Below, in pieces: positions 3,253 to 56,657 of a DNA stretch of 64,000 nt (positions are counted from its first letter, which is position 1; each line of letters opens with the position of its first letter). A model generated the notes under the pieces. The model had not been told where the DNA came from. It worked only from the letters and a program-made list of their open reading frames with translations, and searched no databases. The stretch is from contig CAYOCD010000005.1 of assembly GCA_964402425.1 (NCBI GenBank), positions 6,064 through 70,063 of the forward strand, written 5' to 3'. This stretch comes from an uncultured Gammaproteobacteria bacterium (GTDB taxonomy: Bacteria; Patescibacteriota; Patescibacteriia; UBA9934; GWF2-40-263). Both the position numbers and the translations under genes were made by a program.

Positions 3253-3418
3253 ACCCGACGCTTCCTTCCTCCTACAGAAGATGCATTGGGCAGGGCAAAT
3301 ATCTTTTCATCAAAAAACCCTGTTTCCAGAGTGGCACAATCGTACCATAAAAACGGGATTTTGTCAATGGTTTTAGGAGGGTAGCAACTCTTTTTTTCGC
3401 TCAACAAAGCAAAAGTGG

Positions 3419-3482: not shown

Positions 3483-6446
3483 ATGTCACAACACATTTAT
3501 AATAAACAAAGCTGGAAAAAATCAGGTCGCCCCCTCTCTGTTCCTCGTAAAATTTGGGAGACTTTCAGAAAAACGGCCATTGGAAAAAATCTTTGGCTTA
3601 TTTTTCTTTTTTTTGTCATTTTAGGATCTCTTTTTGCTCTCGGTCTCTTTGCTCTTGCAAGTCGCAATCTTCCAAGTCCAAGCAGCTTAACAGAAAGAAG
3701 AGTCTCACAAACAACTAAAATTTACGACCGTACAGGCGAACATTTATTATATGAAATTGCTGGAAATGAAAATCGCACGCTTAAACAATTTCAGTCCGGG
3801 TTTTGTGAACCAAATAATACAAACCTCTCATTAGATCCAAAAGGGATTCCTCTTTACGCGGTTCAAGCAACGATCGCTGCAGAAGATCGAAAATTTTGTG
3901 AACATGGTGGTTTTGACGTCAAAGGACTTGCGCGCGCCGTCTTTTTAAACCTGATTGGTCAACGCGTTGGTGGATCCACTCTTACACAACAACTTGTTAA
4001 AAATGCCATTCTTTCAAACGAAAAAACATATACACGTAAAATCAAAGAATTAATTCTTTCAATTGGACTTGAACAAAAGTATTCCAAAGATGAAATTCTC
4101 CAAATTTATTTCAATGAAATTCCTTATGGTTCAAGTTATTATGGAATTGAAGCCGCATCGCAAAACTTTTTTGGAAAATCCGTAAACGAATTATCTGTTG
4201 CGGAAGCCGCAACGCTTGCCGCCCTCCCAAAAGCCCCAACAACATATTTAAACAATCCAGACATGCTTCAAGCGCGTCGTAATTATATTTTAGGAGAAAT
4301 GCAAAAACTTGGTTTCATTGATAAAACAACTGTCGATTCTGCAAAATCTGCAGATACAGCTGTAAATATTCGCTTAACAAATATTACAGCTCCGCATTTT
4401 GTCATGGATGTAAAAGCAAAGCTGGAAGAAGATTATGGGAGACGCCATGTTGAAGAAGGAGGACTTCGTGTTATTACAACATTAGATTATGAACTCCAAA
4501 AAATCGCAGAAGAAGAAGTGAAAAATGGAGTTGAGGCCCGATCAGAACAATATGGATTTTCCAATGCATCCCTTGTTGCACAAGATCCAAAAACAGGACA
4601 AATCTTGGCTCTTGTGGGTTCGAAAGATTTCTTTGATAAAACAATTGATGGGCAAGTAAATGTTTCAACACGTCTTAGACAACCTGGTTCAAGTTTCAAA
4701 CCAATCGTTTTTGCAAAAGCTTTTGAACAAGGCTATACCCCAAATACCGTTCTTTGGGATGTCACAACAAACTTTCCAACAGATGTAGGTCAATACACCC
4801 CGAACAACTATGACTTAAAGGAACGCGGACCAATCATGATGAGAGACGCACTTCAAATGTCTCTTAATATTCCTGCTGTAAAAACAGTTTATCTGGTTGG
4901 TGTGGAACAGACTCTCGATTTTGCAACATCGCTTGGATATAGTTCATTTTCAAATCATGCCAATTTCGGTTTATCTATTGTTCTTGGAGGTGGAGAAGTA
5001 AAACTTGTTGAACATGTAAATACATATGCAACTTTTGCGAATGATGGAAAATTACATGAACAAGTATCGATTTTGAGAGTAGAAGATGCAAATGGAAGTA
5101 TTCTTTCTGAATGGAAACAAAAAGATCCAAAACAAGTTATAAGTGAAAATGCGGCACACATGATTTCAAATGTCTTGTCAGATAACAATGCTCGCGTTCC
5201 CGTTTTTGGTGCAAAAAGTTCCTTACAACTTGGTGATAGACCTGTCGCAGCAAAGTCTGGAACAACGAATGATTATCACGATGCATGGCTTATGGGATAT
5301 ACCCCCTCACTCGCAGCGGGTGTGTGGGTCGGAAATAATAATAACAAAGCCATGAAAAACAGAGCGGATGGATCTATTGTTGCAGGACCTATTTGGAATG
5401 CATTCATGAAACGTGCTCATGAAAAAACCCCAAATACAGCATTTCCAACCCCAGACATTCACCCAACAGGAAAACCCGTTCTTGATGGCTCTCTTGGAGC
5501 ACAAACACTTATTATTGATCGTGCTTCTCAAAAACTTGCTACTGAATTTACACCTGACACCTATAAAGAATCACGTGTGTATGGTGGATATCACGAAATT
5601 TTACATTTTGTTACCCCCTCAGAACCACAAGGATCTATTCCAGAAAAACCAGAAAATGATCCACACTATGCAGCCTGGGAAGCAGGCTTACAGACATGGC
5701 TTCAAAAACGACAACAAGAAACCGGAATACAACTCATCACAACAAACCCACCAACAGAACAAGATGATCTTCACATTCCATCGAACACACCAACTATTCA
5801 TATTCAATCCCCCATCAATAACACAATTATTAATAACTATTCACTCCCTGTTTCTCTCACAGCTTCTGCCCCACGAGGTATTTCGCATGTGGAATACTAC
5901 ATCGATGAATACTTTATCGGCTCCGTGCGTAATGGATTATTTGATACAGTTCTTACCATTCCAAACACCATTCCAAAAGGAATACACTCACTAAAAGCTG
6001 TTGCTTATGATGATATCGATAACAGTGCCTCAGATGTTGTCAGTATTCAAATAGAAGCAGAAACGCAAGAAAACATCCTCAGCCTTATTGATCCAAAAAA
6101 CGGTCAGATCATTGAAAAAACTTCTGGCTCCTATACCGTTGTTACAACCTTGAAAAATCCGCAAAGTATTTCAGCCGTCACCATCTTTGCAGAACAAGTT
6201 GGAACACAAACAAAAACAATCATCGGACACTTCACAGATCCAACATCTCCATTTGTAACAACTGAGTGGAATATTCCAAGTTCTGGTAAATGGGTTTTAT
6301 CTGCAACAGCTCAATCTAAATCCATTCCAGAAGTATTTACGACAGGTGGAAACGTCATAGAAATCAGAGGCTCTTTTTCTTCAGTACCTTCTAATACGTC
6401 AGAGATTTTTAAACCATCTCATTCACTTGATCCGTTCACACAATAA
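3483..6446 (+). CDS. mrcA: class A penicillin-binding protein 1A (glycosyltransferase plus transpeptidase) with roughly 330-aa C-terminal beta-sandwich extension
   Basis: GT51 motifs EDRKFCEHGG and GGSTLTQQ; TP motif SSFKP; N-terminal TM. ATG at 3483 preferred over the TTG at 3453. Confidence 0.9.
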   Translation: MSQHIYNKQSWKKSGRPLSVPRKIWETFRKTAIGKNLWLIFLFFVILGSLFALGLFALASRNLPSPSSLTERRVSQTTKIYDRTGEHLLYEIAGNENRTLKQFQSGFCEPNNTNLSLDPKGIPLYAVQATIAAEDRKFCEHGGFDVKGLARAVFLNLIGQRVGGSTLTQQLVKNAILSNEKTYTRKIKELILSIGLEQKYSKDEILQIYFNEIPYGSSYYGIEAASQNFFGKSVNELSVAEAATLAALPKAPTTYLNNPDMLQARRNYILGEMQKLGFIDKTTVDSAKSADTAVNIRLTNITAPHFVMDVKAKLEEDYGRRHVEEGGLRVITTLDYELQKIAEEEVKNGVEARSEQYGFSNASLVAQDPKTGQILALVGSKDFFDKTIDGQVNVSTRLRQPGSSFKPIVFAKAFEQGYTPNTVLWDVTTNFPTDVGQYTPNNYDLKERGPIMMRDALQMSLNIPAVKTVYLVGVEQTLDFATSLGYSSFSNHANFGLSIVLGGGEVKLVEHVNTYATFANDGKLHEQVSILRVEDANGSILSEWKQKDPKQVISENAAHMISNVLSDNNARVPVFGAKSSLQLGDRPVAAKSGTTNDYHDAWLMGYTPSLAAGVWVGNNNNKAMKNRADGSIVAGPIWNAFMKRAHEKTPNTAFPTPDIHPTGKPVLDGSLGAQTLIIDRASQKLATEFTPDTYKESRVYGGYHEILHFVTPSEPQGSIPEKPENDPHYAAWEAGLQTWLQKRQQETGIQLITTNPPTEQDDLHIPSNTPTIHIQSPINNTIINNYSLPVSLTASAPRGISHVEYYIDEYFIGSVRNGLFDTVLTIPNTIPKGIHSLKAVAYDDIDNSASDVVSIQIEAETQENILSLIDPKNGQIIEKTSGSYTVVTTLKNPQSISAVTIFAEQVGTQTKTIIGHFTDPTSPFVTTEWNIPSSGKWVLSATAQSKSIPEVFTTGGNVIEIRGSFSSVPSNTSEIFKPSHSLDPFTQ

Positions 6447-6485: not shown

Positions 6486-7622
6486 TTATTGCTTGATAGG
6501 CATCACAATATATCGATGTTCGTTTGGCTTGTCTTTTGTTGTAAGAAGACAAGGGTTTGATGCATCAATCATTTGAAACAAGATTTGATCTCCGGACATA
6601 GATTGGAGACCATCTAAAAGATAGCGGAAATTAACCGTTACCGAATTATTCACGCCGGAAATATCTGCATCACATGTTGTTGTATTTTCTCCACGATTTA
6701 CATCAAGCGCCTGAACACTGACACGCTTATCTGAAGGTGAAAATAAGAGTGTTACATCAAACAATCCATTTTTTGAAAAAAGACTTGCTGTTTTTACAGC
6801 CTTTAAGAAATCATCACGATCAACCGTTGCTTGAGTCTGAAATTGTTTTGGAATGATTTGTTCGTAATCAGGATAATTTTCTTCAATCGTTCTTGAAACA
6901 AGCTCAACTGGGCCATACATGAATACAACCTGATTTTGTTTTACTTGCATGGTTATATAGGAAGGTAAATCAACCCCATCACGGAACACAGATAAAATAC
7001 GACTTACTTCTGAAAGTGTTTTTGCTGGAATAACCACACGAAAGTCTTGGACAGGACCACTTGTTACCGGAATTGTCTTCTCAGACAATCGATATGAATC
7101 GGTCGTTGCAAGAGTCAATCTCATCTCTTGCTGAAAGGGGTAAAAATGCATCAGGACACCTGTAAGTTCTGGACGTGACTCATTCGTTGCAACAGAAAAC
7201 AAAACCTGTGAAAGAGCAGTTTTTAAATCATCGATTGGAATCTGAAAACTCATTTCACCCTCCACTTTTGGAACAAGCGGAAAATCCGCTGCGTTCATTC
7301 CATGTATTTTTGTTTTGTGTCCTCCACACTCCACAAGAACTTGATCGCCATTTGTTTCAAGATGAATAACTTCATTTGGAAGCAAGGAAACGTAATCAAA
7401 AAACAATTTAGAAGGGATTGTAAATTCCCCTTGCTCATCAATTTTTCCTCGAACAGAACAGTTAATAGCAATTTCAAGATTTGTTGCGGTAAATCGCACA
7501 ATTCCTCCGTCCGCTTTTACGAGAACGTTTTGAAGAATAGGAAGATTCACATTTTTTGTCACTAAGTGACTTGTGATACTTAATCCTTGATGGAGGTTTT
7601 CTTGTGTGCAGGAAATCTTCAT
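6486..7622 (-). CDS. dnaN: DNA polymerase III beta sliding clamp
   Basis: 378 aa; MKISCTQENLHQGLSITSHL...GVLMHFYPFQQEMRLTLATTDSYRLSEK..., immediately downstream of dnaA. Confidence 0.95.
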   Translation of the reverse strand: MKISCTQENLHQGLSITSHLVTKNVNLPILQNVLVKADGGIVRFTATNLEIAINCSVRGKIDEQGEFTIPSKLFFDYVSLLPNEVIHLETNGDQVLVECGGHKTKIHGMNAADFPLVPKVEGEMSFQIPIDDLKTALSQVLFSVATNESRPELTGVLMHFYPFQQEMRLTLATTDSYRLSEKTIPVTSGPVQDFRVVIPAKTLSEVSRILSVFRDGVDLPSYITMQVKQNQVVFMYGPVELVSRTIEENYPDYEQIIPKQFQTQATVDRDDFLKAVKTASLFSKNGLFDVTLLFSPSDKRVSVQALDVNRGENTTTCDADISGVNNSVTVNFRYLLDGLQSMSGDQILFQMIDASNPCLLTTKDKPNEHRYIVMPIKQ

Positions 7623-7872: not shown

Positions 7873-9288
7873 TTACGTTGTGTATAAACGTTGTTTAATA
7901 AGCTCAAGATCGTGTTGAAGTTTTTCGTCTCCTGTTAAACACTCCGAAATTTTTTCATACGCATGCATGGCTGTTGTGTGATCGCGTCCACCAAGCTCGT
8001 TTCCAATCGAAGGATAACTCGATTTCATCTCTTCTCGCATAAGATACATGATGATTTGTCTTGGAAACGCGAGTTTTTTCTCTCGGCTCTTTCCCAATAA
8101 ATCTTCTATACGAATATCAAAATAGATGGAAACTGTATGAATCAGTTGTTTTGGTGTGATGTTCTTTTTGAGAGAGGATGGTTGGAAACTGGTAAGAATT
8201 GGTTTGACAGTATCGAGTGTTGGACGAACATTTTTGAATTGGTGAAATGCAATCACTTTGTTTAATGCACCTTCGAGTTCTCGAACGTTTGTTTGTACAA
8301 TAGAAGCAATATGATTGAGAATATCATGTTCAATTTGATACACCTTTTCTCTACATTTTGACTCCAAAATTGCAACACGTGTTTCAAAATCTGGCGAACC
8401 AACATCTGCCATCATTCCCTGTTCAAGACGAGAAGAAAGACGTGCTTCAAGGGATGGGATCGCTTTTGGAGGACGATCTGAAGAAAAAACAAGTTGTTTA
8501 TTGTTTTGGAACAGTTGATTGAATGTATGAAAAAACTCTTCCTGTGTACTCTCTTTTCCTCCAAGAAATTGAATATCATCAATAAGAAGTGTATCAACCA
8601 TGCGATATCGATTCTTAAAATCATTCATTTTACCTGTGCGAAGGGCAGATACGTAATCATTTGTGAAGCGTTCACAAGTAATATAAAGGATACGAAGATT
8701 AGGGTTTTTCCGTAAAAGTTCGTTTCCAATTGCTTGAAGCAAGTGTGTTTTTCCAAGTCCTACACCTCCATAAATATAAAGAGGATTATAAACTCCACCC
8801 GGTTGACTGGATACAGCTTGCGCAGCTGCATGAGCAAGTTCATTTTGTTTTCCAACGATAAATGTTTCAAAACAATATTTTCCGTTTAATGAAAATTCAC
8901 CTGTTCGATTTTCTTGGATTTCTGATGGTTGTTCCGTAAAAAAATCTTTCGGTGTTTGTACTGGTGGCTCTTGTTGTTGAATGAAAACAGGTTGTGGTTC
9001 TGTTTTTCCTACAACAGGAACATTTTGAGCAGGAATTTGTCGTGTTTCAACACGAAAAGCAACATGTTTGATGTTTCCTCCTGTATGTTCTTGAACAGAC
9101 TTAATAATTTCACGTGCATGCTTCTTTTCAAGCCATGTAAGCGTAAACATGTTTGGAACACCAATCGTAAGAGAGTGTTCTGTTATTTCAGAAATAAATG
9201 TGCTTTTGAACCAAGTCGTGAAATTAGCTTTACTCAGTGACAATTCAAGTTCACCAAGAACAGCTTGCCAGAGTTCGATCGTGTTCAT
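7873..9288 (-). CDS. dnaA: chromosomal replication initiator DnaA
   Basis: 471 aa; Walker A GGVGLGKTHLLQAIGNE; C-terminal DNA-binding domain ...AFPRQIIMYLMREEMKSSYPSIGNELGGRDHTTAMHAYEKI... Confidence 0.97.
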   Translation of the reverse strand: MNTIELWQAVLGELELSLSKANFTTWFKSTFISEITEHSLTIGVPNMFTLTWLEKKHAREIIKSVQEHTGGNIKHVAFRVETRQIPAQNVPVVGKTEPQPVFIQQQEPPVQTPKDFFTEQPSEIQENRTGEFSLNGKYCFETFIVGKQNELAHAAAQAVSSQPGGVYNPLYIYGGVGLGKTHLLQAIGNELLRKNPNLRILYITCERFTNDYVSALRTGKMNDFKNRYRMVDTLLIDDIQFLGGKESTQEEFFHTFNQLFQNNKQLVFSSDRPPKAIPSLEARLSSRLEQGMMADVGSPDFETRVAILESKCREKVYQIEHDILNHIASIVQTNVRELEGALNKVIAFHQFKNVRPTLDTVKPILTSFQPSSLKKNITPKQLIHTVSIYFDIRIEDLLGKSREKKLAFPRQIIMYLMREEMKSSYPSIGNELGGRDHTTAMHAYEKISECLTGDEKLQHDLELIKQRLYTT

Positions 9289-10351: not shown

Positions 10352-11071
10352 CTATTTTTCCCAAAGCATTTCAAACATTTCTTTAAAAATATCCACCATA
10401 CTTGGCACTTCAATCACAACCGCAAGTGCGGTTTGGTCTGGGTTTACAACAAGAATCTTGTCGTCAAAGATATCCATCGTACTTTTAAATGTATGATTCT
10501 TGGGTAATACACGAACGTCTCGTAGAAGTTTTGTATCATCAGGACTTGCCTTAATAGAGTCTGCAGAGAGGAGAATACGAGTTTTGATCTTTGCATTTGC
10601 ACGATCGAACCGAAATTTCTGAAAAAAATCCGGATCAATTCCCTCCCAGGCTGTTGCACTTCCGATGGCAGAGTAGGATTTCCCTTTATATTCAACCAGA
10701 ATTCCTGTGTAAAAACGTTCAAGCTCCTGTTTGGTTTCAATAAAACGTAAGCCGACCGTTGAAACAGTTTGTTTCTCGATCGTTTTTAGTTCCGGAATGA
10801 TCGCCTCAAAGGATTCGAGGCGCTTTTCATATTGTCCGGCCACTTTATCAGGCTTTTCTGCTCGATAGAGTCTTTTTGATTTATGGAAATATGTAGAAGC
10901 AAAGCCTTTTTCATGCAAAGACTTAAGGATTGGATAAATTGTGGTGCGTTTAACTCCAACTTCTTTGGAAAGGGCGATGGCATTTCCTCCCCCAATCTTA
11001 AGTAAAGCAAGATATGTTCCAGCTTCATCTTCTGTTAACCCGAGGGTTTGAAGGGTAGAAATATGTGACAT
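10352..11071 (-). CDS. TrmB-family transcriptional regulator (winged HTH)
   Basis: N-terminus MSHISTLQTLGLTEDEAGTYLALLKIGGGNAIALSKEVGVKRTTIYPILKSLHEKGF is typical of TrmB; a paralog is at 38450. Confidence 0.75.
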   Translation of the reverse strand: MSHISTLQTLGLTEDEAGTYLALLKIGGGNAIALSKEVGVKRTTIYPILKSLHEKGFASTYFHKSKRLYRAEKPDKVAGQYEKRLESFEAIIPELKTIEKQTVSTVGLRFIETKQELERFYTGILVEYKGKSYSAIGSATAWEGIDPDFFQKFRFDRANAKIKTRILLSADSIKASPDDTKLLRDVRVLPKNHTFKSTMDIFDDKILVVNPDQTALAVVIEVPSMVDIFKEMFEMLWEK

Positions 11072-11116
11072 ATTTGTATGTCAAAATTTTACAACGTAAT
11101 TAATCTATTGTCAAGC

Positions 11117-11136
11117 TTTATCTAAATTTAGATAAA
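11117..11136. promoter_or_regulatory. perfect 20-bp palindrome TTTATCTAAATTTAGATAAA (candidate TrmB operator)
   Basis: Abuts the -35 (TTGACA, minus strand 11115-11110) of the divergent TrmB gene and lies 28 nt upstream of the -35 of the + strand gene pair. Confidence 0.55.
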
Positions 11137-11162
11137 ATATTTGCTAATTATGTCAGGAATCA

Positions 11163-11191
11163 TTGACAAAAAGGCAAAAAAGAGGTAAACT
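11163..11191 (+). promoter_or_regulatory. sigma70-like promoter for the 11295 gene
   Basis: TTGACA-17 nt-TAAACT. Confidence 0.5.
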
Positions 11192-11238
11192 GATGTCATC
11201 AAGAATGAGAGAGCGATAAGGAATCGCACCTCACTTGA

Positions 11239-11294
11239 GGAGAGAGTTCATTCGAAACAAGTCCTGACATTTAACGATCAGGCAAGGAGAAAAG
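11239..11294 (+). promoter_or_regulatory. conserved structured 5' leader, copy 1
   Basis: GGAGAGAGTTCATTCGAAACAAGTCCTGAC-ATTTAAC-GATCAGGCAAGGAGAAAAG-ATG; hairpin CCTGA/TCAGG directly 5' of the AAGGAG RBS; near-identical to 11730-11784. Confidence 0.5.
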
Positions 11295-11630
11295 ATGGAT
11301 AAGCATTTTGTCTTTTCTGTGTTCTCATCTGATTTTAGGGTGATTAACGGGGTGTTGCATACCTATGAGACGTGCCCATGCTCCATTAAATTTCCAAAAA
11401 ACAAGGAGGAGAAAGGGGTCTTCGTTCAGAAAATTACCGATTCGTTAAGAGAACTTGGGTTTTCTAAAGTAGTGGTTCACTATAGCCATTATAAAAACCC
11501 AATATTTGGTCCTGATCATTCTCTTTACGATCTCAGAGAATATATTCCCACTGCTCGGGGATCTTGCACAAGAATGCCCATACTCCCCGATTTGATCGAG
11601 ACAGAGTTCGATATGGGGAAACAGTCCTAA
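11295..11630 (+). CDS. hypothetical protein (111 aa)
   Basis: ORF with AAGGAG RBS 6 nt upstream; no recognisable family. Confidence 0.5.
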   Translation: MDKHFVFSVFSSDFRVINGVLHTYETCPCSIKFPKNKEEKGVFVQKITDSLRELGFSKVVVHYSHYKNPIFGPDHSLYDLREYIPTARGSCTRMPILPDLIETEFDMGKQS

Positions 11631-11729
11631 CCCATCGGACATTAAACCGAATTGAGTACACGACACTCGTGCTCTTTGGATGATGGGTTCCCTTCTGGGA
11701 TGATCAGTGGGTGCTGGTCAATCGAGATT

Positions 11730-11784
11730 GGAGAGAGTTCATTCAAAAAAGTCCTGACGTATGAAGATCAGGCAAGGAGAAGAA
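11730..11784 (+). promoter_or_regulatory. conserved structured 5' leader, copy 2
   Basis: GGAGAGAGTTCATTCAAAAAAGTCCTGAC-GTATGAA-GATCAGGCAAGGAGAAGAA-ATG; same stem, different loop. Confidence 0.5.
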
Positions 11785-12354
11785 ATGTTCAACGACAAAC
11801 GTGCCTATGCAAAGTTTCAAATCGAAAAGGCCGGCAAACACATGCAGGTCGTTACGTTTGAGCAGATTGAGGAGTTGCTCGGTGTGCAATTCAACGATGC
11901 TGTTTTACGCGAACATTTTAATCACGGGATTCGGTTGGGTGAATCCGAACTCCGTTTGTTTGGAGACACACACATTCTCATGCCAGGATTCCCCATCTCT
12001 ATCAACGACATGGAGTACAGCGAACAATGGAATAAGATGACGTGTCGATCCGCAGAGTTGGGTGGGTGGATCCTGATGCGTAAGACTCCGGCCAAATTTG
12101 GAACACCCATTCTGGCCGGAGAGTCCATTGCAAACATCCACGACGTCTTCTATGTGGACTTCATTCACAAGAAGCTCTTTGGGAAGCCACTGTTCGATTT
12201 CAATGGGTATGAAACCATTCGAACGTCGGACACGTGGGAACCGTTTTGCAAGTGTCGCGCCGGGTACAACCAATATCCAGATCGACGCAATCGCATTGAA
12301 GAGTTGAGTGAAACAGTTAGCAAAGACGACTTCATGGTGTATGTCATGAAGTAA
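11785..12354 (+). CDS. hypothetical protein (190 aa)
   Basis: Start set at the ATG after AGGAGAAGAA by analogy with copy 1; the in-frame ATG at 11761 lies inside the leader hairpin loop. No recognisable family. Confidence 0.5.
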   Translation: MFNDKRAYAKFQIEKAGKHMQVVTFEQIEELLGVQFNDAVLREHFNHGIRLGESELRLFGDTHILMPGFPISINDMEYSEQWNKMTCRSAELGGWILMRKTPAKFGTPILAGESIANIHDVFYVDFIHKKLFGKPLFDFNGYETIRTSDTWEPFCKCRAGYNQYPDRRNRIEELSETVSKDDFMVYVMK

Positions 12355-16971: not shown

Positions 16972-17214
16972 AAGATGTGTGCGGAAATGAAAATGACTAA
17001 AAACATGAGGCTATCGTAATGAGGTCTGTGCATTTTGTCAACGATTTTTCCATGGAAGAAATACGTTTTTTTATTTAATTTTAGCTGTAAAATACAAAAA
17101 AAAGTTTGACAAAACAGGAAAAAAAGCCTATAGTTCTAGTCACAAATTGCCCATAATGCATTTTTTATCAAACTTTCCATCAAACATTTTTTTGTTCGAT
17201 CAGCGCTCGTTGTT

Positions 17215-18453
17215 TTGCGATCTTTGATCATAGTCAAGCGGGTTGGAAAACCAATCGTTTTGGCTGTTGGACAACCGTTTAAGACGGTTGGGATTATTTT
17301 GATAAAATCAATCGGTGTTCCTGCTTATCGTGGAATATTTTTCATTCGTAGATTGGTTCACACAATTCTTCTTCCAGCGAAACATCGTTTTTTTTATTTG
17401 CTTTCAAATCGTTATACCATTCACATATTAATGATTGTTATTGTTGGAATTATTGGAGTGACAAATTTTCAAACACGTAATGTTCGCGCAGAGACATTTG
17501 GACAAAAAAGTATTTTGTATGCACTTGTGTCTGTTGACGATTCTGAAACCGTTGAGGTTGTGGAGGCGGGAAAATCCGTTTTAATTCCCGGAGGATCATC
17601 TAGTTATTTTGCGGATATTGCGCTTGATACACGTACACAATTTCAACAAGACGAATTTGATCAGGTGACAAAACCCACCCAAACCCCAACGACACAAACA
17701 CGCTCGTCTGTTGAAACGTATGTTGTAAAAGAAGGTGATACGCTTGGAAAAATTTCTGTGCGTTTTCAGTTAAGTATCAGTACAATTCTTTCAGCAAACG
17801 GGCTTACACTTCGCAGTACAATTCGTCCGGGTGATACACTCAAAATTCTTCCAGAAGATGGAATAATGTATAAGGTAAAAAGTGGCGATACTCTTTCTCG
17901 CATCGCACAAAAATATGATATTGGCGTACAAGATATCGCAACCGCTAATCAACTTCCTACAACGGTTGCTTTAAAAATTGGAGAAGAACTTCTCTTGCCG
18001 GGTGCAACAGCTATTGCTCCTCCGGCAGCAATTGCACGTGTACCTGTGAGTGTAAAAAACATCATTACAAAAACTCCTTCCCCAGCCCCAACAAGCACTG
18101 GATGGGTGTGGCCAACAAACTGGCACATCATTACGCAATATTATGGATGGAAACACACGGGAATTGATGTGGATGGAGACTATTCAACCTTTAGTATTGC
18201 GGCAAATGACGGTGTTGTAAGTTACGCAGGTTGGCGCACAGGTTATGGATTAACGGTTGAAGTGGATCATGGAAATGGTTTGAAGACACGATATGCACAC
18301 AATTCAAAGATTTTTGTGGGAGCGGGAGATGTCGTTGCTGCGGGTGAGCGTTTAGCACAAACAGGAACAACGGGACGTTCAACGGGAACACACTTGCACT
18401 TTGAGGTGATTTTGAACGGTAAATTCCAAAATCCACTGTCGTACGTTCGTTAA
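17215..18453 (+). CDS. LysM-LysM-M23 family metallopeptidase (peptidoglycan hydrolase)
   Basis: Two LysM repeats (YVVKEGDTLGKISVRF..., YKVKSGDTLSRIAQKY...) and M23 motifs (HTGIDV...GTTGRSTGTHLHFEV). Start uncertain; alternative ATG at 17431. Confidence 0.85.
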   Translation: MRSLIIVKRVGKPIVLAVGQPFKTVGIILIKSIGVPAYRGIFFIRRLVHTILLPAKHRFFYLLSNRYTIHILMIVIVGIIGVTNFQTRNVRAETFGQKSILYALVSVDDSETVEVVEAGKSVLIPGGSSSYFADIALDTRTQFQQDEFDQVTKPTQTPTTQTRSSVETYVVKEGDTLGKISVRFQLSISTILSANGLTLRSTIRPGDTLKILPEDGIMYKVKSGDTLSRIAQKYDIGVQDIATANQLPTTVALKIGEELLLPGATAIAPPAAIARVPVSVKNIITKTPSPAPTSTGWVWPTNWHIITQYYGWKHTGIDVDGDYSTFSIAANDGVVSYAGWRTGYGLTVEVDHGNGLKTRYAHNSKIFVGAGDVVAAGERLAQTGTTGRSTGTHLHFEVILNGKFQNPLSYVR

Positions 18454-36228: not shown

Positions 36229-36530
36229 GGGTTTTCCTCCTGAAAATTGGAAGGTACTTCCGAGTGAGGTTCATTCCTCATTTCAGCAGGTAACACCATG
36301 TTCCCAGCTGAAGTAAAGATGAGAAACAGTAAGCAAATATCTTCTTTTTGTCAATGGATTTACTAAAGGTAAATCAAGCGACCCCATTTTTGCCACAAGA
36401 ACAGTTTAAAATGTTTGTCATAATTGAAAATACTGTTTGTCGAAGAGATCGACAACATGTAGGTTGTTCTAGAGCTTTATATATTGCCAATAATTCATCT
36501 ATCCTTTATAATCGTCCCGTTAGCCTTCAT

Positions 36531-37784: not shown

Positions 37785-37845
37785 TTCCTCGCAATCTCAT
37801 GCGGGGATTTTTTTAAATAAAAAACCCCACAAAATATTGTGGGAT
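37785..37845. terminator. convergent terminator pair
   Basis: + strand CCTCGCAATCTCATGCGGGG followed by ATTTTTTT; minus strand CCCACAATATTTTGTGGGG followed by TTTTTTATTT. Confidence 0.5.
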
Positions 37846-38388: not shown

Positions 38389-38411
38389 TGTTGTCGACTT
38401 TTTCGACAACA
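38389..38411. promoter_or_regulatory. inverted repeat TGTTGTCGA-CTTTT-TCGACAACA (candidate operator of the second TrmB paralog)
   Basis: 9-bp perfect arms with a 5-nt spacer immediately upstream of the regulator ORF. Confidence 0.45.
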
Positions 38412-38449
38412 TTTTGACTTCTGAATCATGGCATGAGATTCTAGAATAT

Positions 38450-39223
38450 ATGCATATGAACTACACATCTGACATTCTTAAAGGACTCGAGGCCTTTGGT
38501 CTTGACGAAAAAGAAGTCAAAGTTTATCTCGCTGGTCTTGAAATGGGAACTGCGACCGTGCTTGAGCTCTCTCGTCGAACAGAATTACCAAGAACTACGC
38601 TCTATCCTATTCTTGAAAGACTCGAACAACATGGAGTGTTTAAGGTTGGTAGACAAAAAAATACCACGGTTTACATTGCAGAGCTTCCGGACGTATTGAA
38701 TCGTCAGCTCGAGGATCGTGCGACTCTTTTTTCCAAAACACTTCCCGCCCTTCAAACGATTCGTGGATCTGTGAACGAAGGTCCGGGTGTAACGTTTTAT
38801 GAAGGGTCAGATGGATTTAAGCGTGTATGGAAAGCGATTATCGGATCTGGGGTGAAAGAATATCGATTGATCACAAGTGGAACGGGTTTACTCGATTATG
38901 TTAAAGAACCGTACATTGTAAAGCGTGTGATTGCAGAACGTTTGCAAAAGAAAATTTTGAGTAAGCAGCTTATTCCGGAATCGCGCGATGCTCGAAAGAT
39001 TGTGGAGAAAGATAAAGAAGAGTTACGTGAATCACGATTCCTACCGGTTGGAACCGTGTTGCCCTCTACCGTTATTATCTTTGCAGATCAGGTGGCATTT
39101 ATTACAACACGTAAAGAAAATACGATGATTCTGCTCGCCTCTGGCGATGTTGCGCTCACGTATAAAACATTATTTGAGTTGATTTGGGAGAAAGCGGATA
39201 AGGGAGAGAGCAAAAAGGTCTGA
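38450..39223 (+). CDS. TrmB-family transcriptional regulator, paralog 2
   Basis: ...ILKGLEAFGLDEKEVKVYLAGLEMGTATVLELSRRTELPRTTLYPILERLEQHGVF...; same C-terminal ...LWEK ending as paralog 1. Start ambiguous (TTG 38414, ATG 38450 or 38456). Confidence 0.7.
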   Translation: MHMNYTSDILKGLEAFGLDEKEVKVYLAGLEMGTATVLELSRRTELPRTTLYPILERLEQHGVFKVGRQKNTTVYIAELPDVLNRQLEDRATLFSKTLPALQTIRGSVNEGPGVTFYEGSDGFKRVWKAIIGSGVKEYRLITSGTGLLDYVKEPYIVKRVIAERLQKKILSKQLIPESRDARKIVEKDKEELRESRFLPVGTVLPSTVIIFADQVAFITTRKENTMILLASGDVALTYKTLFELIWEKADKGESKKV

Positions 39224-45590: not shown

Positions 45591-45666
45591 GTCCTCGTAG
45601 CATAAATGGATAGTGCTGTAGCGTCCTAAGCTATAGATGGGGGTTCAATTCCCTCCGGGGACACCA
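45591..45666 (+). tRNA. tRNA-Arg (anticodon CCT), CCA encoded
   Basis: Acceptor GTCCTCG/CGGGGAC with one U-G pair; anticodon stem GTAGC/GCTAT with loop GTCCTAA; T-arm GGGGG-TTCAATT-CCCTC. The D-arm still needs a consistent fold. Confidence 0.82.
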
Positions 45667-45703
45667 TTTACCTGAAAATAAGCGTTTAATATTTATATCA
45701 ACG

Positions 45704-45750
45704 AAAAATTGCTGAAATGCAACTAATACATTTCAGCAATTTTTTATTTG
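45704..45750. terminator. strong bidirectional hairpin after tRNA-Arg
   Basis: 16-bp perfect stem AAAAATTGCTGAAATG / CATTTCAGCAATTTTT with a 9-nt loop and T-run. Confidence 0.65.
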
Positions 45751-46531
45751 TGGATTTTATGTGTTGTTTCGCTCAAAGTTTTACGTTTGTTTGTGTTTTT
45801 TCACGTGAAACATTTTTTTGTATGTGTGGGTGGTGTTTCTTGGCTGTAAAAATCATCATTTTAAATGAATCATTCATAATGATTGGTAATATTCTGTTTT
45901 AATCTATTTTCACACTAAAACGTTTTGTGATTATTCATGATCTTTATGCTTCAAAGCTTGTGATGCTGTTTAATGTTGATTTCAAGAGTTTTTTAGCGAT
46001 ATCTTATATATTTGATGAAATAAATAGTATTTATATTGTGTTTGATGTCAGTTGTAAATATTTATGAATTTTGAGCAGGATACGGCAAAAATATAATTCT
46101 ATAAGGAAATGAACTATTAAACGTAGTGGAAGCAAGAAATCACTTCAATGAAGTATTGTGACAATGTAATTGTTCAGTCTCTTGAATGAGATATTTTTTA
46201 AATACCAGATCATGTCTGGTATTTGTGTTTCACATGAAACGTTTGCTGATAGCTGTATGAGTGCTTGAAGTTAAACATCCACACATTCTTTGAATGGGCA
46301 GAGAAATGGATTGTGTTTGAATGTAATAAATGAAGTTGGTAAAGACGGTGTCTCTATAAGGTTTACTTATGCACAATCTGTGCCCAACTAGATAAAATAT
46401 AAGTAAATTATACACAGGTTGTCTACAATGGTGTAGACAAAAATAGTAAATTGTGGATAACTCCGGAAAAGAGCGTTTTTATGTTGTTTTCAGAATGAAT
46501 TATCGAGAAAAAAAAGGAAAAGATCATTTAT

Positions 46532-46591
46532 TTTATCTAAATTTAGCGTAAATATGGCTTGACGAAATTTGTTGTTCATGGTACACTGTGT
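46532..46591 (+). promoter_or_regulatory. surface-operon promoter with an upstream TrmB-palindrome half-site
   Basis: TTTATCTAAATTTAG (46532-46546) matches 15 of 20 positions of the 11117-11136 palindrome. It lies 12 nt upstream of TTGACG-17-TACACT (46559-46587), and the ATG is at 46608. Confidence 0.5.
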
Positions 46592-46607
46592 GGGTAAAGG
46601 TAATGAT

Positions 46608-47519
46608 ATGAGCAAGCTTGTTGCCGCCTTTGTTCTTGTGGGGTTTTTTATATACACAAATCCCGTAACAGCAGAGATGACATCCACAAACTACCAGATC
46701 CGATGGGACTCCTTAACAGAGGGGGGTTCTGATACATCCAATTCGGAGACCTACGGAGTCCATGATTCTGTAGGTGGAAATGCCCTTGGTGGTTCTACGA
46801 GTGAAAGCTATCAAACAGATAGTGGATATAGAGCAGGTATCATTGATCAGGTCATTACATTCGACATTTTGCTTCAAAATAGCTCTGACTATCGATCAGT
46901 GGATGCGCGTATCGGAACGACCGTGTCTCTTTCAAACACAACAGGACTTTCTGTGGGGGCATATATCGCACTTATGCAAGATCATGGGGAAAATCAGGTT
47001 ACAGCCGTTGGAAAGATTGTAAGTATTTCCTCAGGAGTTTCTTTGACGGTGGATTCCTGGTCAGACAATGGAACAACACCGACCATCGATGGCACAAATG
47101 ATTTACTTTATCTTTTGAATGGGTCAGCGATTGAACTTGGATGGTTGAGGTCATCAGATGTGTCAACGGCCGTTATAGGATACGAGGTTACTGCCGATCT
47201 CGATAACGGTTATTCTGTTCAACTCATGACATCAGGCAGTCTTTCAAATGGAACACAGTCAATTACAAGTGTTGCAGACGGTTCGGTCACTGTTGGGTCA
47301 GAAGAATATGGGGCACGTTCCTCGGACACAAGTATTTCGACATCCACATTTGATACGCAAGACACGGCTCTTACGACATCATTTCAAGATATTGCAACAG
47401 AATCTTCAGCAAAATATGACAATAGACATTTTCTTACATTGAAAGCAGCTGTTACGTCAGCAGCAGGAAGCGGAACTTATTCGCAATCCATCACATTGAT
47501 TGCATCCGGCAATTTCTAA
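46608..47519 (+). CDS. secreted hypothetical protein (roughly 304 aa, Ser/Thr/Gly-rich)
   Basis: Signal peptide MSKLVAAFVLVGFFIYTNPVTA; first gene of a translationally coupled 4-gene block. Confidence 0.6.
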   Translation: MSKLVAAFVLVGFFIYTNPVTAEMTSTNYQIRWDSLTEGGSDTSNSETYGVHDSVGGNALGGSTSESYQTDSGYRAGIIDQVITFDILLQNSSDYRSVDARIGTTVSLSNTTGLSVGAYIALMQDHGENQVTAVGKIVSISSGVSLTVDSWSDNGTTPTIDGTNDLLYLLNGSAIELGWLRSSDVSTAVIGYEVTADLDNGYSVQLMTSGSLSNGTQSITSVADGSVTVGSEEYGARSSDTSISTSTFDTQDTALTTSFQDIATESSAKYDNRHFLTLKAAVTSAAGSGTYSQSITLIASGNF

Positions 47520-47520
47520 T

Positions 47521-48438
47521 ATGAATGTTCGCACGATTCTTCCCTCTCTCATCCTCTTTGCTCTTCCGCATCTGGCATATGCGGCGGCTGTTTCGCCTGC
47601 GGTGATTGATCTGGAGGGTGGGCGTGGTGAAGAGGTGGAGGCAGCATTTACCGTCATCAATACACAAGCAACGGATCAAACATATTACCTCGACACCCTT
47701 TCATTTCAAGCAAAAGATGAAACGGGAGAGCCAAGATTTCTTACAGAAGAAACATCGAACGATCTTTCAACATGGGTTTCGTTTCCTCTAGATCAAATCA
47801 GTGTCCCTGCAAGATCTAAAGTGGATGTTCCCTTTTCCGTTCAAATACCGGTTGATGTTTCTTCTGGAAGTTATCAATCTGCAATCACGGTCTCGAGTGC
47901 TCCTGCAGAAGTGGTTGCAACAAACGGAGCCATTATAGAAGCAAAAACAGCAACACTTGTTTTCCTCCTTATAAAAGGAGAGACAACAAAAAAAGTTGCC
48001 TTGCTCGATTTTGTGTCAAAAGACAAGTCAATTCGATCAGATGTTCATACGTCCTTTACCTTTCGTCTGCAGAATCAGGGGAATGTATATGCTGTGCCGG
48101 AAGGACAAATCGTTTTAAAAGATCTGTTTGGTCGGAAACTTGGGGCGATTGATATCAATGAGACAAAACAACGTATTCTTCCTGCAACAACACGATCGTT
48201 TCAAGCGTCAGATCAAAAAGCGGTTGGATTTCTGGATGTCTTAAAGGATCAAATGAATCATTTCTCGATTGGTCCTGTAATAGCAACGCTTTCAATAAAC
48301 TTTGGTGAAGGATTTGAGCCCATTCAAACAACTACATCGTTCTGGTATGTGCCACATCAGTTAATTCTCTCCGTTTTTCTCTTCGTTGGACTACTTACGG
48401 TCGGGTATCAAATCCTTTCAAAACATAAAAAAACGTAG
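47521..48438 (+). CDS. secreted protein with a C-terminal TM anchor (roughly 306 aa)
   Basis: Signal peptide MNVRTILPSLILFALPHLAYA; C-terminal helix LILSVFLFVGLLTVGYQIL plus a KHKKT stop-transfer; its ATG is 1 nt after the upstream stop. Confidence 0.6.
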   Translation: MNVRTILPSLILFALPHLAYAAAVSPAVIDLEGGRGEEVEAAFTVINTQATDQTYYLDTLSFQAKDETGEPRFLTEETSNDLSTWVSFPLDQISVPARSKVDVPFSVQIPVDVSSGSYQSAITVSSAPAEVVATNGAIIEAKTATLVFLLIKGETTKKVALLDFVSKDKSIRSDVHTSFTFRLQNQGNVYAVPEGQIVLKDLFGRKLGAIDINETKQRILPATTRSFQASDQKAVGFLDVLKDQMNHFSIGPVIATLSINFGEGFEPIQTTTSFWYVPHQLILSVFLFVGLLTVGYQILSKHKKT

Positions 48439-48439
48439 T

Positions 48440-51400
48440 GTGTGCCAAAAACGCTTATCCATTATTTCGAACATTGTTTCAATCGCGGTCATTTTGACGG
48501 CGCTTGTGACGGCTGTTCGAGTGGATGCAGCAACCGTGACGAGTGCAAATGATTATGTTTCAACGCTTGTAGCGTCGGAACTCGCAAATCATGAGGTGCT
48601 CTTTACAACTCCATCAGGAATTTCAGAGGGTCAAACAGTGACGCTTACGTTTGGTTCCGGATTCACCACAACTTCTATTACAGAAGATGATGTAGATGTT
48701 GCGGATGATTCCACTGAACTTACAACAGCGGCAACTTGTGCGGGTTCTGAACAAGCTTCTGTTGCGATTGCTTCGAATATCATGACACTCACAATTTGTG
48801 CAGGTGATGGTGGTGCCATTGCAGCGACAAGTGCTGTGCGTGTTCGTATTGGAACGAATGCAACAAGTTCTGGAATAGGAATGAATCGCATGACAAATCC
48901 ATCAAGCGCAAAAAATCATTTTGTGACGATTGGTGGAACATTTGGAGATGCAGGTTCGATTGCTTTACCTGTTCAATCAAGCTCAAGTGCTGTAAGTGTG
49001 ACGGCAACGATTCCATCTGTGGGAATTTCTGCTCCAAGCGGAAATGGATGTACAGAAAACTGCAATTTTGTGAATCAACAAGATGCGACTCCGCCTGTAA
49101 TAAGTGCGGTTGTTGTTTCTGGTATGACATTAAACGGAGCAACTATTTCTTGGACAACAGATGAAAATGCAAATTCGCGCGTAAATTATGGTTTGACGAA
49201 TGAATTTGAATTGGGTTTTGTTCTTGATGCATCTCTTGTTAAAAGCCACACCGTTTCCCTTACGGGTTTGCAAGAAGGTAAGATGTACTATTTTCAAGTG
49301 AAGTCTGCGGATCAGTCGAATAACATTGCGACGTATTCGACGACCACTTTCAATACACTTGATCCAACAGCACCAGTTCTTTCCAATGTTGTTGTGACGA
49401 ACATCACACAATCTTCTGCAACGATCAGCTGGAACACAAATGAGAACACGACAAGTGTTCTTGATTATGGGCTTACAGCAAGTTATGGAACGAATTTAAT
49501 GAGTGCCGCGTTTACCCAAAATCACTCATTTCATCTTTCTGGATTACAAAGCGGAATGACATATCATTTCCGTGTGAAATCGCAAGATGCTTCTGCAAAC
49601 ATAACAACATCGACAAATCAATCGTTTGCAACGCTTGCAAATTTGGCACCAACAAACGTTGCAGCCCTCACGATTCTTCCAGGGGACAAAAAATTGACAC
49701 TTGTATGGTCAAATCCAACCGATGTGGATTTTGCTGGTGTTCGTGTTTTGCGATGTGGTTCTGGATTTCCTAGTGGTCCGACAGATATTTCCTGTTCGGT
49801 TGTTTTAGATAACAGTTTCACTCAAACACTTGTTCAAACAGGTCTCACAAACGAGACAACATATTATTATGGCGTCTTTTCAAAAGATACTACTTTGCAA
49901 TTCGCTTCTGGTGCTCTTGCTTCGGGCAAACCAAGCGCTCCAGAAATAGAGGTGCTAAGTACGTGTGGAGATTTGGTCTGTAGCGCAACAGAATCAAGCT
50001 CTTCATGTCCTGCCGATTGTTCAGTGCCTTCTCAAGGCCCTGTCTGCGGCGATGCTATTTGTGCAGGTTCCGAAACAACCACAACATGTTCGGTCGATTG
50101 TGCGGTCCAAACGCCATCGAAAACACAAACTTCTGAAACCATCGGGAGCACATGTGGAAATGGAGTGTGTAATGATTCGGAGTCAACGTTTACGTGTGCA
50201 GCTGATTGCAAGGTAACTGTACCAACAGAGTCAACAACTCCCGGGTCAGGAGTTGGAACACTTCGTTATACAGATGTGCAATTCTCTGTCGGAAACGGAG
50301 CTGTACAATTATCAAACACCAATGGTTACATAGATGTTTTGCCTCGCACACCATTGTCCGTGCGTGTGCCGGCAACAAATATTGGAATTGGTATCGATCA
50401 CGTTCGTCTTGCGATTGGTGCCGAAACGTTCATTCTGCGTCCTGTAACACGGATGAGTGCTTCATCCTTATCGGCGTCTCTTATCGTCGCCGCGTCTACA
50501 GATGACGTATCCGTTCTTTTTTACGAAGCAGATGTCTTAACACCGAGCGCATTATCGCTCAATCCTGTGACGATTTTCGTAGAGTATGAAAATGGTCAAA
50601 CGATCAACGCTTCTTCGTTTCTGCGTGTTGTCGCTCCGGGCGTCACGCATGAAATCATCGATGGAGAAGAAGCTGTCGTCGCGGGAACAACAGTAACGTT
50701 GTACCAAGTTGTCGGAACTTCTGGTTCTGTATGGGATGGGTCACCCTACAGTGCACAAAATCCAACAACAGCAACAACAAACGGATTGTTTGCGTGGTAT
50801 GTTCCAAATGGGCTTTATCGTGTCCGTGCAGAACAGGCTTTGTATGATTCAGTCGACACACCTGTGCTCGATGTGAAAAACAACATCGTCAATCCACGCA
50901 TCTTGATGACACCTCTTGTTCAAGTTGAGGAAACCCCTCTGCAAACGGCGACGGAAGCCGTGCTTGCAGCGGTCGTCAGTCAAGAAACGGTGAAACAAGT
51001 CACTATAGCAATTCAAAAAATTACAGAATCAAAACCAGTTCAAGCTGTTACCGAACAATTGGAAACAATCCGAGAAATCCCTGCTGTTCAGACAGCAGTA
51101 GACGCCTCGGTTCCAACACTGATCGTCTCTGCTGGAACAAGTGTGGTTGTGATGTCGATCGCGTTCGATTTTCTCCCGTTTGTTCAATATCTTTTTACAG
51201 CGCCTGTTCTCTTTTTAGGGCGAAGCAAACGAAAAGGATTCGGAGTGATTTATAACGCAATCAGTAAAGAGCCAATTGGCCTGGCTGTTGTGCGTCTTTA
51301 TCAGGTAAAAGATGAGCAAGAGCGAATAGGTAAATTGGTAAAAAGTCGTGTGACAGACAAAGGTGGACGATTTTATTTCTTGGTTCAACCAGGAACGTAT

Positions 51401-52030
51401 CGTTTGATGGTCACAAAAGCCGGGTTTCAGTTCCCGACTCAACATCTCACAGCCAAAAAAGAGGATGTTCAATTCACAGACTTGTACCACGGAGAATTGT
51501 TACGCGTGACAGAAGCCGATGCGGTTATTACCCCTAATATTCCGATCGATCCTTCCGTGACAGCGAAATACCAAGAGCCTAAGAATATCAAATGGCATGC
51601 GCGTTTACGCGTGATTCAGCACTCAATCGCCTTTTCCGGCGTCTTACTTTCCTTTGTTTTTGCCATTATCCGACCGAACGTGCTTGCGGCCGCGATGGTG
51701 CTTCTCCAAATTGGAATCTATTTATTTGTGCAACGACTCGCAAAACCTCGCAAACCAAAATCTTGGGGGATTGTTTATGACAAGAAGACCGGACGCCCCG
51801 TTTCAAACGTGGTTGCTCGTATCTTCGAGCCTAAATATAACAAGCTTCTTGAAACACAAGTTACCGACAGCAAAGGACGATACTCCTTCCTTCTCGGGCC
51901 GGCTGAGTACTATGCCGTGTTTGAAAAGGAAGGGTATCGATCCACTCAAGTGAGTCCAATCGATTTCTCAAAAGATAAAGAGGCAAAAGATTTCTCCATG
52001 GATATTCGTTTGTTAACCAAAGAGACATAA
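48440..52030 (+). CDS. giant surface protein 1 (roughly 1196 aa): signal peptide, FN3-like domains, three Cys-rich repeats, carboxypeptidase-regulatory-like domains and C-terminal TM helices
   Basis: GTG start 1 nt after the upstream stop gives the signal peptide MCQKRLSIISNIVSIAVILTALVTAVRVDA. FN3-like ...ATISWTTDENANSRVNYGLT... twice. Repeats CGDLVCSATESSSSCPADC / CGDAICAGSETTTTCSVDC / CGNGVCNDSESTFTCAADC. ...GRFYFLVQPGTYRLMVTKAGFQ... and ...GRYSFLLGPAEYYAVFEKEGYRS...; hydrophobic helices near the C-terminus. Confidence 0.7.
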   Translation: MCQKRLSIISNIVSIAVILTALVTAVRVDAATVTSANDYVSTLVASELANHEVLFTTPSGISEGQTVTLTFGSGFTTTSITEDDVDVADDSTELTTAATCAGSEQASVAIASNIMTLTICAGDGGAIAATSAVRVRIGTNATSSGIGMNRMTNPSSAKNHFVTIGGTFGDAGSIALPVQSSSSAVSVTATIPSVGISAPSGNGCTENCNFVNQQDATPPVISAVVVSGMTLNGATISWTTDENANSRVNYGLTNEFELGFVLDASLVKSHTVSLTGLQEGKMYYFQVKSADQSNNIATYSTTTFNTLDPTAPVLSNVVVTNITQSSATISWNTNENTTSVLDYGLTASYGTNLMSAAFTQNHSFHLSGLQSGMTYHFRVKSQDASANITTSTNQSFATLANLAPTNVAALTILPGDKKLTLVWSNPTDVDFAGVRVLRCGSGFPSGPTDISCSVVLDNSFTQTLVQTGLTNETTYYYGVFSKDTTLQFASGALASGKPSAPEIEVLSTCGDLVCSATESSSSCPADCSVPSQGPVCGDAICAGSETTTTCSVDCAVQTPSKTQTSETIGSTCGNGVCNDSESTFTCAADCKVTVPTESTTPGSGVGTLRYTDVQFSVGNGAVQLSNTNGYIDVLPRTPLSVRVPATNIGIGIDHVRLAIGAETFILRPVTRMSASSLSASLIVAASTDDVSVLFYEADVLTPSALSLNPVTIFVEYENGQTINASSFLRVVAPGVTHEIIDGEEAVVAGTTVTLYQVVGTSGSVWDGSPYSAQNPTTATTNGLFAWYVPNGLYRVRAEQALYDSVDTPVLDVKNNIVNPRILMTPLVQVEETPLQTATEAVLAAVVSQETVKQVTIAIQKITESKPVQAVTEQLETIREIPAVQTAVDASVPTLIVSAGTSVVVMSIAFDFLPFVQYLFTAPVLFLGRSKRKGFGVIYNAISKEPIGLAVVRLYQVKDEQERIGKLVKSRVTDKGGRFYFLVQPGTYRLMVTKAGFQFPTQHLTAKKEDVQFTDLYHGELLRVTEADAVITPNIPIDPSVTAKYQEPKNIKWHARLRVIQHSIAFSGVLLSFVFAIIRPNVLAAAMVLLQIGIYLFVQRLAKPRKPKSWGIVYDKKTGRPVSNVVARIFEPKYNKLLETQVTDSKGRYSFLLGPAEYYAVFEKEGYRSTQVSPIDFSKDKEAKDFSMDIRLLTKET

Positions 52031-52042
52031 TTAAACGGAGGT

Positions 52043-56614: not shown

Positions 56615-56657
56615 AGTGTCGTGTTCTTTCTGTGTCCACAATTTCATAACAAAAAAT

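Follow-up and report, generated by a model that had tools for sequence, protein, structure and literature searches.

The archaeal regulators TrmB and TrmBL1 have the motif TATCAC-N5-GTGATA, the glycolytic motif of the Thermococcales, and we know of no TrmB motif that resembles GCTAA-NN-TTAGC, the palindrome with which this paper is concerned. For class I activators, typical sites are those of CRP at -61.5 or -71.5. The CIRCE element, TTAGCACTC-N9-GAGTGCTAA, has the words TTAGC and GCTAA in common with the palindrome, but their arrangement and spacing are opposite, and this identification was rejected.

For CPR bacteria, the Pam pilus has been described as a CPR-specific surface filament, with the operon present in Saccharimonadia and Microgenomatia; genes for MFS transporters were reported near the pam operons, and in a term search the words 'promoter' and 'TrmB' were absent from the paper (bioRxiv 10.64898/2026.03.03.709456). 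A literature search revealed neither a described transcription-factor motif or regulon for CPR surface filaments nor any publication dealing with promoter motifs or TrmB regulators of CPR bacteria. These bacteria are mostly uncultured and host-attached, and the palindrome described here would represent a first testable regulon for host-contact structures.

The stretch of 64,000 nucleotides analysed here (the window) spans an origin region, with dnaN (6486-7622), dnaA (7873-9288), rpmH, rnpA and clusters of DnaA boxes. The minimum of the cumulative GC skew is located near 6-8 kb, and the skew does not put the origin at the surface-filament operon. The palindromic element, designated the box, was identified both in the control region of a TrmB-like regulator gene close to dnaA and upstream of this operon, with the following features:

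46608-59053, plus strand: surface-filament operon, with the ATG of gene 1 at 46608, followed by the genes 47500-48438, 48386-52030, 52043-56614 and 56708-59053
46559-46587, plus strand: surface-operon promoter, TTGACG /17/ TACACT with a TG-extended -10; conservation extends over the entire core promoter with its spacer
46529-46551, plus strand: box copy 2, core TCTAA-AT-TTAGC at 46536-46547, separated by 11 nt from the downstream -35 of the surface operon, core centre at about -52.5
11117-11136, no strand assigned: box copy 1, the perfect 20-bp palindrome TTTATCTAAATTTAGATAAA, core TCTAA-AT-TTAGA at 11121-11132, between divergent promoters
46389-46400, plus strand: a third 12-mer, TAGATAAAATAT, overlapping a -10-like TAAAAT and judged to be outside the system

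Gene 1 of the operon codes for a pilin-like secreted protein of 303 amino acids. Its scores against the NCBIfam models PamT and Pam_pilin_C (NF058579 and NF058581) are 49.8 versus 240 and 25.3 versus 55, both being sub-threshold. In the structure model, the N-terminal 81 residues have a pLDDT below 50, as would be expected for a donor-strand-like segment, without showing one. A fold search against the PDB gave no match at E <= 0.001, and the resemblance to chaperone-usher pilins was weak and non-significant. The operon is similar to the pam operons in being a surface-filament operon, in the weak matches of gene 1 and in the presence of MFS transporter genes nearby, but it scores far below the family cut-offs and its lineage is Uhrbacteria-like. 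Judged from these sequences, it may be a distant Pam-like system in that lineage, which is not among the classes listed in the preprint. Two MFS transporter genes follow the operon, at 59490-60734 and 60836-62062.

The DNA upstream of the operon shows several further features. In relatives, a gene for a HAD hydrolase is present between rmuC and the surface operon; in the window, this interval (45591-46568) contains instead a tRNA-Arg(CCT) gene and about 900 nt of AT-rich DNA without open reading frames. Four DnaA boxes were identified (within 46367-46460 and at 46589-46597), one of them perfect (TGTGGATAA, 46452-46460) and three with one mismatch. At least one perfect TTATCCACA is present within 350 nt upstream in 46 of 63 homologous loci (among L055-L134), and the density of perfect boxes is 2.88 per kb upstream versus 0 per kb in the adjacent coding DNA. 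The half-site TTATCTAAA of the palindrome was rejected as a DnaA box: it has two mismatches to TTATCCACA and is not among the 35 matches with at most one mismatch. An inverted repeat, TTGTCTACA-N4-TGTAGACAA, is located at 46420-46439, some 120 nt before the -35 of the surface operon. Near and distant relatives have kept it, with TGTCTAC or GTAGACA in 47 of 63 loci, and its half-site is the same as that of a repeat in front of a TrmB paralogue in locus L047. Two parS-like sites were found, TTTTTCACGTGAAACA at 45797-45812 with one mismatch and TGTTTCACATGAAACG at 46226-46241 with two, the latter also being present in the relatives L051-L054.

A preliminary description of the window, made from the letters alone, had pointed to the palindrome TTTATCTAAATTTAGATAAA at 11117-11136 and to the word TTTATCTAAATTTAG at 46532-46546 upstream of the surface-operon -35, and both are located where it had placed them. 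The longest stretch common to the two sites is an exact 18-mer in inverted orientation, since 46529-46546 (TATTTTATCTAAATTTAG) is the reverse complement of 11122-11139; both copies therefore face the same way relative to their respective downstream genes. The copy at 46532 had been regarded as a half-site; instead, it is a full canonical site with the right arm TTAGC (46532-46551). The third 12-mer exists as described, one base off the reported position (46389-46400 instead of 46390-46401), but its place in the system was not retained: the DNA around it is absent from an 84 % relative, the region is unconserved in L052, and the word, which overlaps the -10-like TAAAAT, is probably a chance match. 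Searches of the window with the half-sites TTTATCTAAA, ATCTAAATTTAG and KCTAANNTTAGM, with mismatches allowed, stayed at background level and yield no regulon alone.

Promoters were compared from 80 metagenome loci with gene 1 homologues of 40-82 % identity, which gave 50 non-redundant promoters. In 46 of these, the box is located exactly 11 nt upstream of the TTGAC of the -35; loci whose promoter has no box are, for example, L082, L098, L123-L128 and L133. The consensus, which many CPR (Patescibacteria) lineages conserve, consists of a T-tract, GCTAA-NN-TTAGC and an A-tract; it is palindromic, with a core of 12 bp and palindromic flanks of up to about 28 bp, and at some surface-operon loci near-perfect 28-bp palindromes are present. 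Almost no variation is seen at the G and C of GCTAA/TTAGC, which are present in 37-39 of 39 sites. In the clade of the window, the left arm is TCTAA instead of GCTAA. Among relatives with a gene 1 of 70-84 % identity, TTT[T/C]ATCTAAATTTAG[C/T]nnAAATATrGC-TTGAC is kept and the flanking DNA has diverged; box copy 2 is conserved in L051, L052, L054 and L055-L057.

A box matrix was built from 39 distant surface-operon (pilus) promoter sites, with the clade of the window excluded. It ranks 46532-46551 first in the window (18.1) and 11117-11136 second (13.9). The shuffle maxima of the matrix per 64 kb have a median of 11.2 bits and a 95th percentile of 16.1, above the 13.9 of the site at 11117. Matrix scores of such short AT-rich sites overlap with the shuffle maxima, and the case thus rests on positional conservation across genomes; conservation of both sequence and spacing is what is decisive for a functional element. 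On this comparison of sequences, the assignment of the 11117 and 46532 sites as copies of one functional cis-element is supported, the palindrome at 11117 being, by the same comparison, a derived, species-specific version of the box. The spacer of the surface-operon promoter is also conserved across lineages (46565-46587; L055-L134), with the pattern TTGACtacatttnGTATTCATGnTATAMT, which points to an additional protein contact or to an operator that overlaps with the core promoter.

For the regulator locus, the features are:

10352-11071, minus strand: TrmB-like regulator gene, 239 amino acids, TrmBL2-like architecture, Pfam TrmB match at 1.1e-14
11086-11114, minus strand: promoter of the TrmB-like gene, TTGACA (11114 to 11109) /17/ TAAAAT, with 11 of 12 matches
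11078-11097, minus strand: O1, an imperfect inverted repeat (GTGTYG-N8-TGACAC in consensus) that overlaps both the -10 TAAAAT and the predicted start
11151-11167, minus strand: O2, GTCAATGATTCCTGACA, overlapping the divergent -35 and with the same TGTC-N10-GACA spacing as O1
11163-11191, plus strand: divergent promoter, TTGACA /17/ TAAACT, serving the array of variable small genes, with the box centre at about -71.5
11295-11630 and 11761-12354, plus strand: two small unrelated genes with a repeated leader, a species-specific cassette array

The protein encoded by 10352-11071 matches PF01978 with 54.4 bits (cut-off 25.6) at residues 7-74, the N-terminal winged helix-turn-helix. Its AF2 model (pLDDT 86) contains a helix at 74-106 and an alpha/beta domain at 108-238, and the top Foldseek matches were full-length TrmBL2 (5box/5bpd, E 2e-13) in addition to PLD-fold proteins. 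As modelled, the protein has the TrmBL2-type build, with a long dimerisation helix and a PLD-like C-terminal domain. With the equivalogs for sugar-sensing TrmB and TrmBL1 (NF040851 and NF047390), only 23 and 49 bits were obtained versus cut-offs of 600 and 650; these alignments cover just the N-terminal 100 or so residues, and the protein has 239 amino acids versus a family length of about 340. By these sequence criteria, the regulator is a member of the TrmB family devoid of the sugar-binding part, and not a sugar-sensing TrmB. In total, 243 homologues were identified, with more than 50 % identity across CPR lineages, and the family ranges over Uhr-, Magasanik-, Moran-, Kerfeld-, Falkow- and Wolfebacteria. 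The predicted winged-helix domain, long helix and PLD-like domain thus resemble archaeal TrmB, TrmBL1 and TrmBL2. The system differs in belonging to a bacterium (CPR) and in the short protein without a sugar-binding subdomain, and the binding to DNA is a predicted one here.

The upstream regions of the regulator gene were aligned for 43 orthologous loci (the species of the window and 42 other genomes), anchored on O1. O1 is present in about 41 of the 43 across CPR lineages, usually 1-11 nt before the ATG. The O2 pattern, GTCAA-N7-wrACA, was found in 30 of the 43 regions, with a background expectation of 0.022 per 60 nt, and in 23 it lies exactly 70 nt from O1. The half-sites of O1 and O2 and of the repeats at TrmB paralogues (TGTC/TATC...GACA/GATA) resemble the archaeal TrmB/TrmBL1 motif. 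WhiA, with the motif GACAC, is a possible lead to a binder of O1. With an O1 matrix, the window site scores 22.4 and the next best 10.0, which is within shuffle noise; a second credible O1 site was not found in the 64-kb window, the surface operon included, so that O1 gives no link to that operon. Neither O1 nor O2 was found at the surface operon.

The palindrome had been said to abut the regulator -35, and the promoter geometry agrees with this, the gap being 2 nt. Box copy 1 is located at a fixed 36 nt from O1, at an offset of -39, as in L007, L008, L010, L025, L028 and L030; in L047, the offset is -40. In every lineage of the alignment, a shorter element, GGCTWA, precedes O1 by a constant 36 nt; it is located within an ancestral promoter, TTGACA-17-TATAAT, or, in the clade of the window and in L022, before a newer -35, and in L025, L028 and L030 the box is located inside the promoter spacer. 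At -39/-40, the box is the top match of the 8.7-kb locus in L001, L007, L008, L010, L022, L025, L027, L030 and L047; in L028, it ranks second. About 10 of the 43 loci contain a full box at this offset, and most others contain just the GGCTWA half-site or none. In the relatives with 94 %, 92 % and 90 % identical proteins, the sequence of the site is TTTGTTTAAATTTAGATAAT, TTTAGCTAAATTTATTATAG and TTTGGCTAAATTTAGTATAA, respectively, with one arm kept in each, and the perfect 20-bp symmetry is found in this species only among the loci compared. This rapid turnover among relatives of 90-94 % identity implies weak constraint on the site at the regulator gene. In the 90 % relative L007 (GCA_026395055.1), a MITE-like insertion of about 125 nt with long terminal inverted repeats was noticed between O1 and the ATG (around 3875-4000).

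The divergent promoter and its leader are conserved in L007-L010, L138 and L139. The genes behind it had been described as twin hypothetical genes, a term that does not apply: they are mutually non-homologous and absent from the closest relatives. The repeated element is the leader, with copies at 11239-11297 and 11730-11787, one before each small open reading frame; it has no match in Rfam, and its fold is unremarkable (z = -1.6). The variable slot sits behind the conserved promoter and a 5' leader of about 75 nt. Each close relative has different, unrelated small open reading frames there (11198-12354 in the window; L007 2100-3650; L008 2040-3780; L011 and L014), and the slot looks like a hypervariable cassette array.

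A second gene of the TrmB family was identified in the window by Pfam and had been missed in a tblastn search with the L034 paralogue. The encoded protein is 30 % identical to the first, and the gene is located upstream of polA-holA:

38414-39223: second TrmB-family gene, 269 amino acids from TTG 38414, probable ATG at 38456
38390-38412, no strand assigned: perfect inverted repeat TGTTGTCGA-N5-TCGACAACA (9+5+9) in front of the second TrmB gene

A sister repeat, TTGTCGA-N5-TCGACAA, is present at 36438-36454 upstream of the gene for tRNA-His, and from their sequences the two repeats likely form a small separate regulon. Repeats of the TGTC/TATC type are present at every TrmB paralogue promoter examined in which a repeat is recognisable, among them TGTCAT-N7-GTGACA (L028), GTGTCAC-N9-GTGACAC (L042) and TATTGTCTA-N5-TAGACAATA (L047). 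The simplest reading of these sequences would be that TrmB-family proteins bind TGTC-type repeats here and that another factor recognises the box.

Further box copies were found at other genes. In the window, a third candidate precedes a peptidase gene:

17070-17089, plus strand: candidate box copy 3, core TTTAA-TT-TTAGC at 17074-17085, matrix score only 6.8
17215-18453, plus strand: LysM-Peptidase_M23 gene, candidate regulon member

Copy 3 is located 20 nt upstream of the TTGACA (17106-17111) of the promoter of this gene, with TATAGT at 17129-17134 and the box centre at about -61.5. Its right arm TTTAGC and its spacing are kept in two relatives, L135 (score 11.2) and L136 (14.6). Rejected was a match at 3395-3414 upstream of a gene for a class A penicillin-binding protein, which has weak arms, no -35 at the proper distance and a score (13.2) below the shuffle 95th percentile. 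In other lineages, strong boxes precede the -35 of genes for small secreted proteins by 9-11 or about 20 nt, others overlap the core promoter of a TrmB paralogue of about 390 amino acids, and very strong ones lie between the gene for a second TrmB paralogue (L028, L034) and a divergent gene for a secreted protein. In the TrmB-like loci, 15 matches of at least 14 bits were found in 349 kb.

Relative to the predicted start sites, the box centres are located at about -52.5 for the surface operon, -61.5 for the M23 peptidase gene, -71.5 for the divergent small genes and -47.5 for the regulator. The arrangement resembles that of class I activators, with a dyad-symmetric box that precedes a sigma-70-like promoter at a strictly constant distance and with the copies at -52.5, -61.5 and -71.5 about one helical turn apart; activation is putative. 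It differs in that the box is unrelated to the CRP/FNR consensus, -52.5 is not a canonical CRP position, the start sites are predicted ones and the phase of the other copies is not shared by the one at the TrmB-like promoter (-47.5). With the UP element, the site of the alpha C-terminal domain of RNA polymerase, the box has in common the AT-rich DNA at about -40 to -60 of a strong-looking promoter, but its G and C positions are invariant, its dyad is exact and it is also found inside promoter spacers. Because of the invariant G and C, the box is not an UP element.

Three other explanations have to be weighed. A functionless chance recurrence of AT-rich sequence is suggested by the word statistics at first sight: the preliminary description had held that a 15-mer is unlikely to recur in 64 kb, and this argument fails, since by chance the window should contain about 11 pairs of identical 15-mers, and half-site searches with one mismatch are at background. 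For exact 18-mers, however, only 0.2 pairs are expected per 64-kb window, and the present pair is the sole one that is not a local hairpin; for perfect palindromes of at least 20 bp the expectation is 0.085 per window, and the 20-mer with up to three mismatches has 2 matches in the window, with two or more found in 0 of 100 shuffles. Sequence and spacing conserved in dozens of other genomes contradict chance, which is hardly credible as an explanation. An architectural role, with the box as a bending site for a nucleoid protein or as intrinsically bendable DNA, is also quite improbable. At the surface operon, the upstream DNA would be wrapped onto RNA polymerase, and at the regulator O1 and O2 would delimit a 70-bp loop with the box close to its apex. 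The AT-rich core with its phased T- and A-tracts would fit, as would the constant distances from O1 and O2, which put the box about halfway between the two, the location at -40 to -60, which is that of UP elements, and the likeness of the regulator to TrmBL2, for which the crystal entries hold four chains. However, the near-invariant G and C indicate base-specific recognition, the exact dyad symmetry is suggestive of specific contacts by a dimer, and similarity to the IHF consensus is poor; on inspection, WATCAANNNNTTR was rejected, since the window copy deviates from it at two positions and the canonical box does not resemble it.

It is possible, if rather unlikely, that the neighbouring TrmB-like protein (10352-11071) itself binds the box as a dimer, represses or tunes its own promoter, and directs the divergent genes and the surface operon; such control of all three had been proposed in the preliminary description. 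The box adjoins the regulator gene, 2 nt from its -35, and has a fixed position in several orthologous control regions, including the spacer position in L025, L028 and L030, which is that of classical self-repression; protein and box are both highly conserved over the same lineages, and the second TrmB paralogue of L028 and L034 has very strong boxes between its gene and the divergent secreted-protein gene. But in most orthologous regulator regions the box is a half-site or absent, O1 and O2 being far more widespread, and the full palindrome is missing even from the 94 % and 92 % relatives. The recognisable repeats at TrmB paralogue promoters are also of the TGTC/TATC type, like the archaeal motif, and not of the GCTAA type. 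What the orthologues conserve as candidate sites of this protein is O1 (about 41 of 43) and O2 (30 of 43, fixed at -70) instead of the box, and the assignment of the box to it is not supported. From the one-regulator model, the part that stands is the regulon joining the regulator and variable-gene region with the surface operon. Since the pattern of boxes would also be expected of a self-repressing activator, a TrmB-family binder, including the neighbouring protein, stays compatible with the data.

The reading preferred here, with a probability of about one half, is that a dimeric protein other than the neighbouring TrmB-like protein binds the box and that the TrmB-like protein binds O1 and O2. 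Bound just upstream of the -35, the dimeric DNA-binding protein would help RNA polymerase in an activator-like manner at surface-related promoters, and it would also modulate promoters of TrmB paralogues. It would be another factor, possibly another paralogue of the TrmB family. The TrmB-like protein would bind O1 and O2 and thereby repress its own gene and the divergent variable genes; O1 and O2 flank the box and overlap both divergent promoters, which fits with autoregulation and control of the variable genes. We infer protein binding, the direction of regulation and the identity of each binder from the sequences, positions and conservation described above. The presence of box copies at these promoters points to one regulon, comprising the surface operon and the control region of the TrmB-like and variable genes, to which the LysM-M23 peptidase gene probably belongs. 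In its mode of action, the box would then resemble an upstream activator site or an operator of the classical type. The 12-bp core, which dozens of genomes have at a constant position, offers a handle for finding the regulator, and the box could predict genes switched together with the filament, for example those for the LysM-M23 hydrolase and for small secreted proteins. It is also a lesson that a regulator encoded beside a palindrome is not necessarily its binder: the earlier assignment was attractive but unsupported.

An extended circuit, in which a network of TrmB-family paralogues together with DnaA couples expression of the filament and host-attachment genes to replication or the cell-cycle state, is conceivable, though we consider it unlikely. 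In many CPR bacteria, the surface operon would then have a conserved control region of several parts: the box at -52.5, the TTGTCTA...TAGACAA repeat, similar in kind to those at promoters of TrmB paralogues, and one to three perfect DnaA boxes, with the parS-like sites nearby in this genome. The circuit would be completed by the copy of the box at the TrmB-like gene, the neighbour of dnaA.

Two minor observations concern isolated sequence matches. A box with a score of 17.3 is present at 4144-4163 of L011, inside the coding sequence of the TrmB-like orthologue in the conserved region of the recognition helix, and is probably a coincidence of codon choice. In the window, an intergenic stretch of 29 nt (37804-37832) is 90 % complementary to 46636-46664, the part of gene 1 coding for the signal peptide, with antisense pairing or chance as possible explanations.
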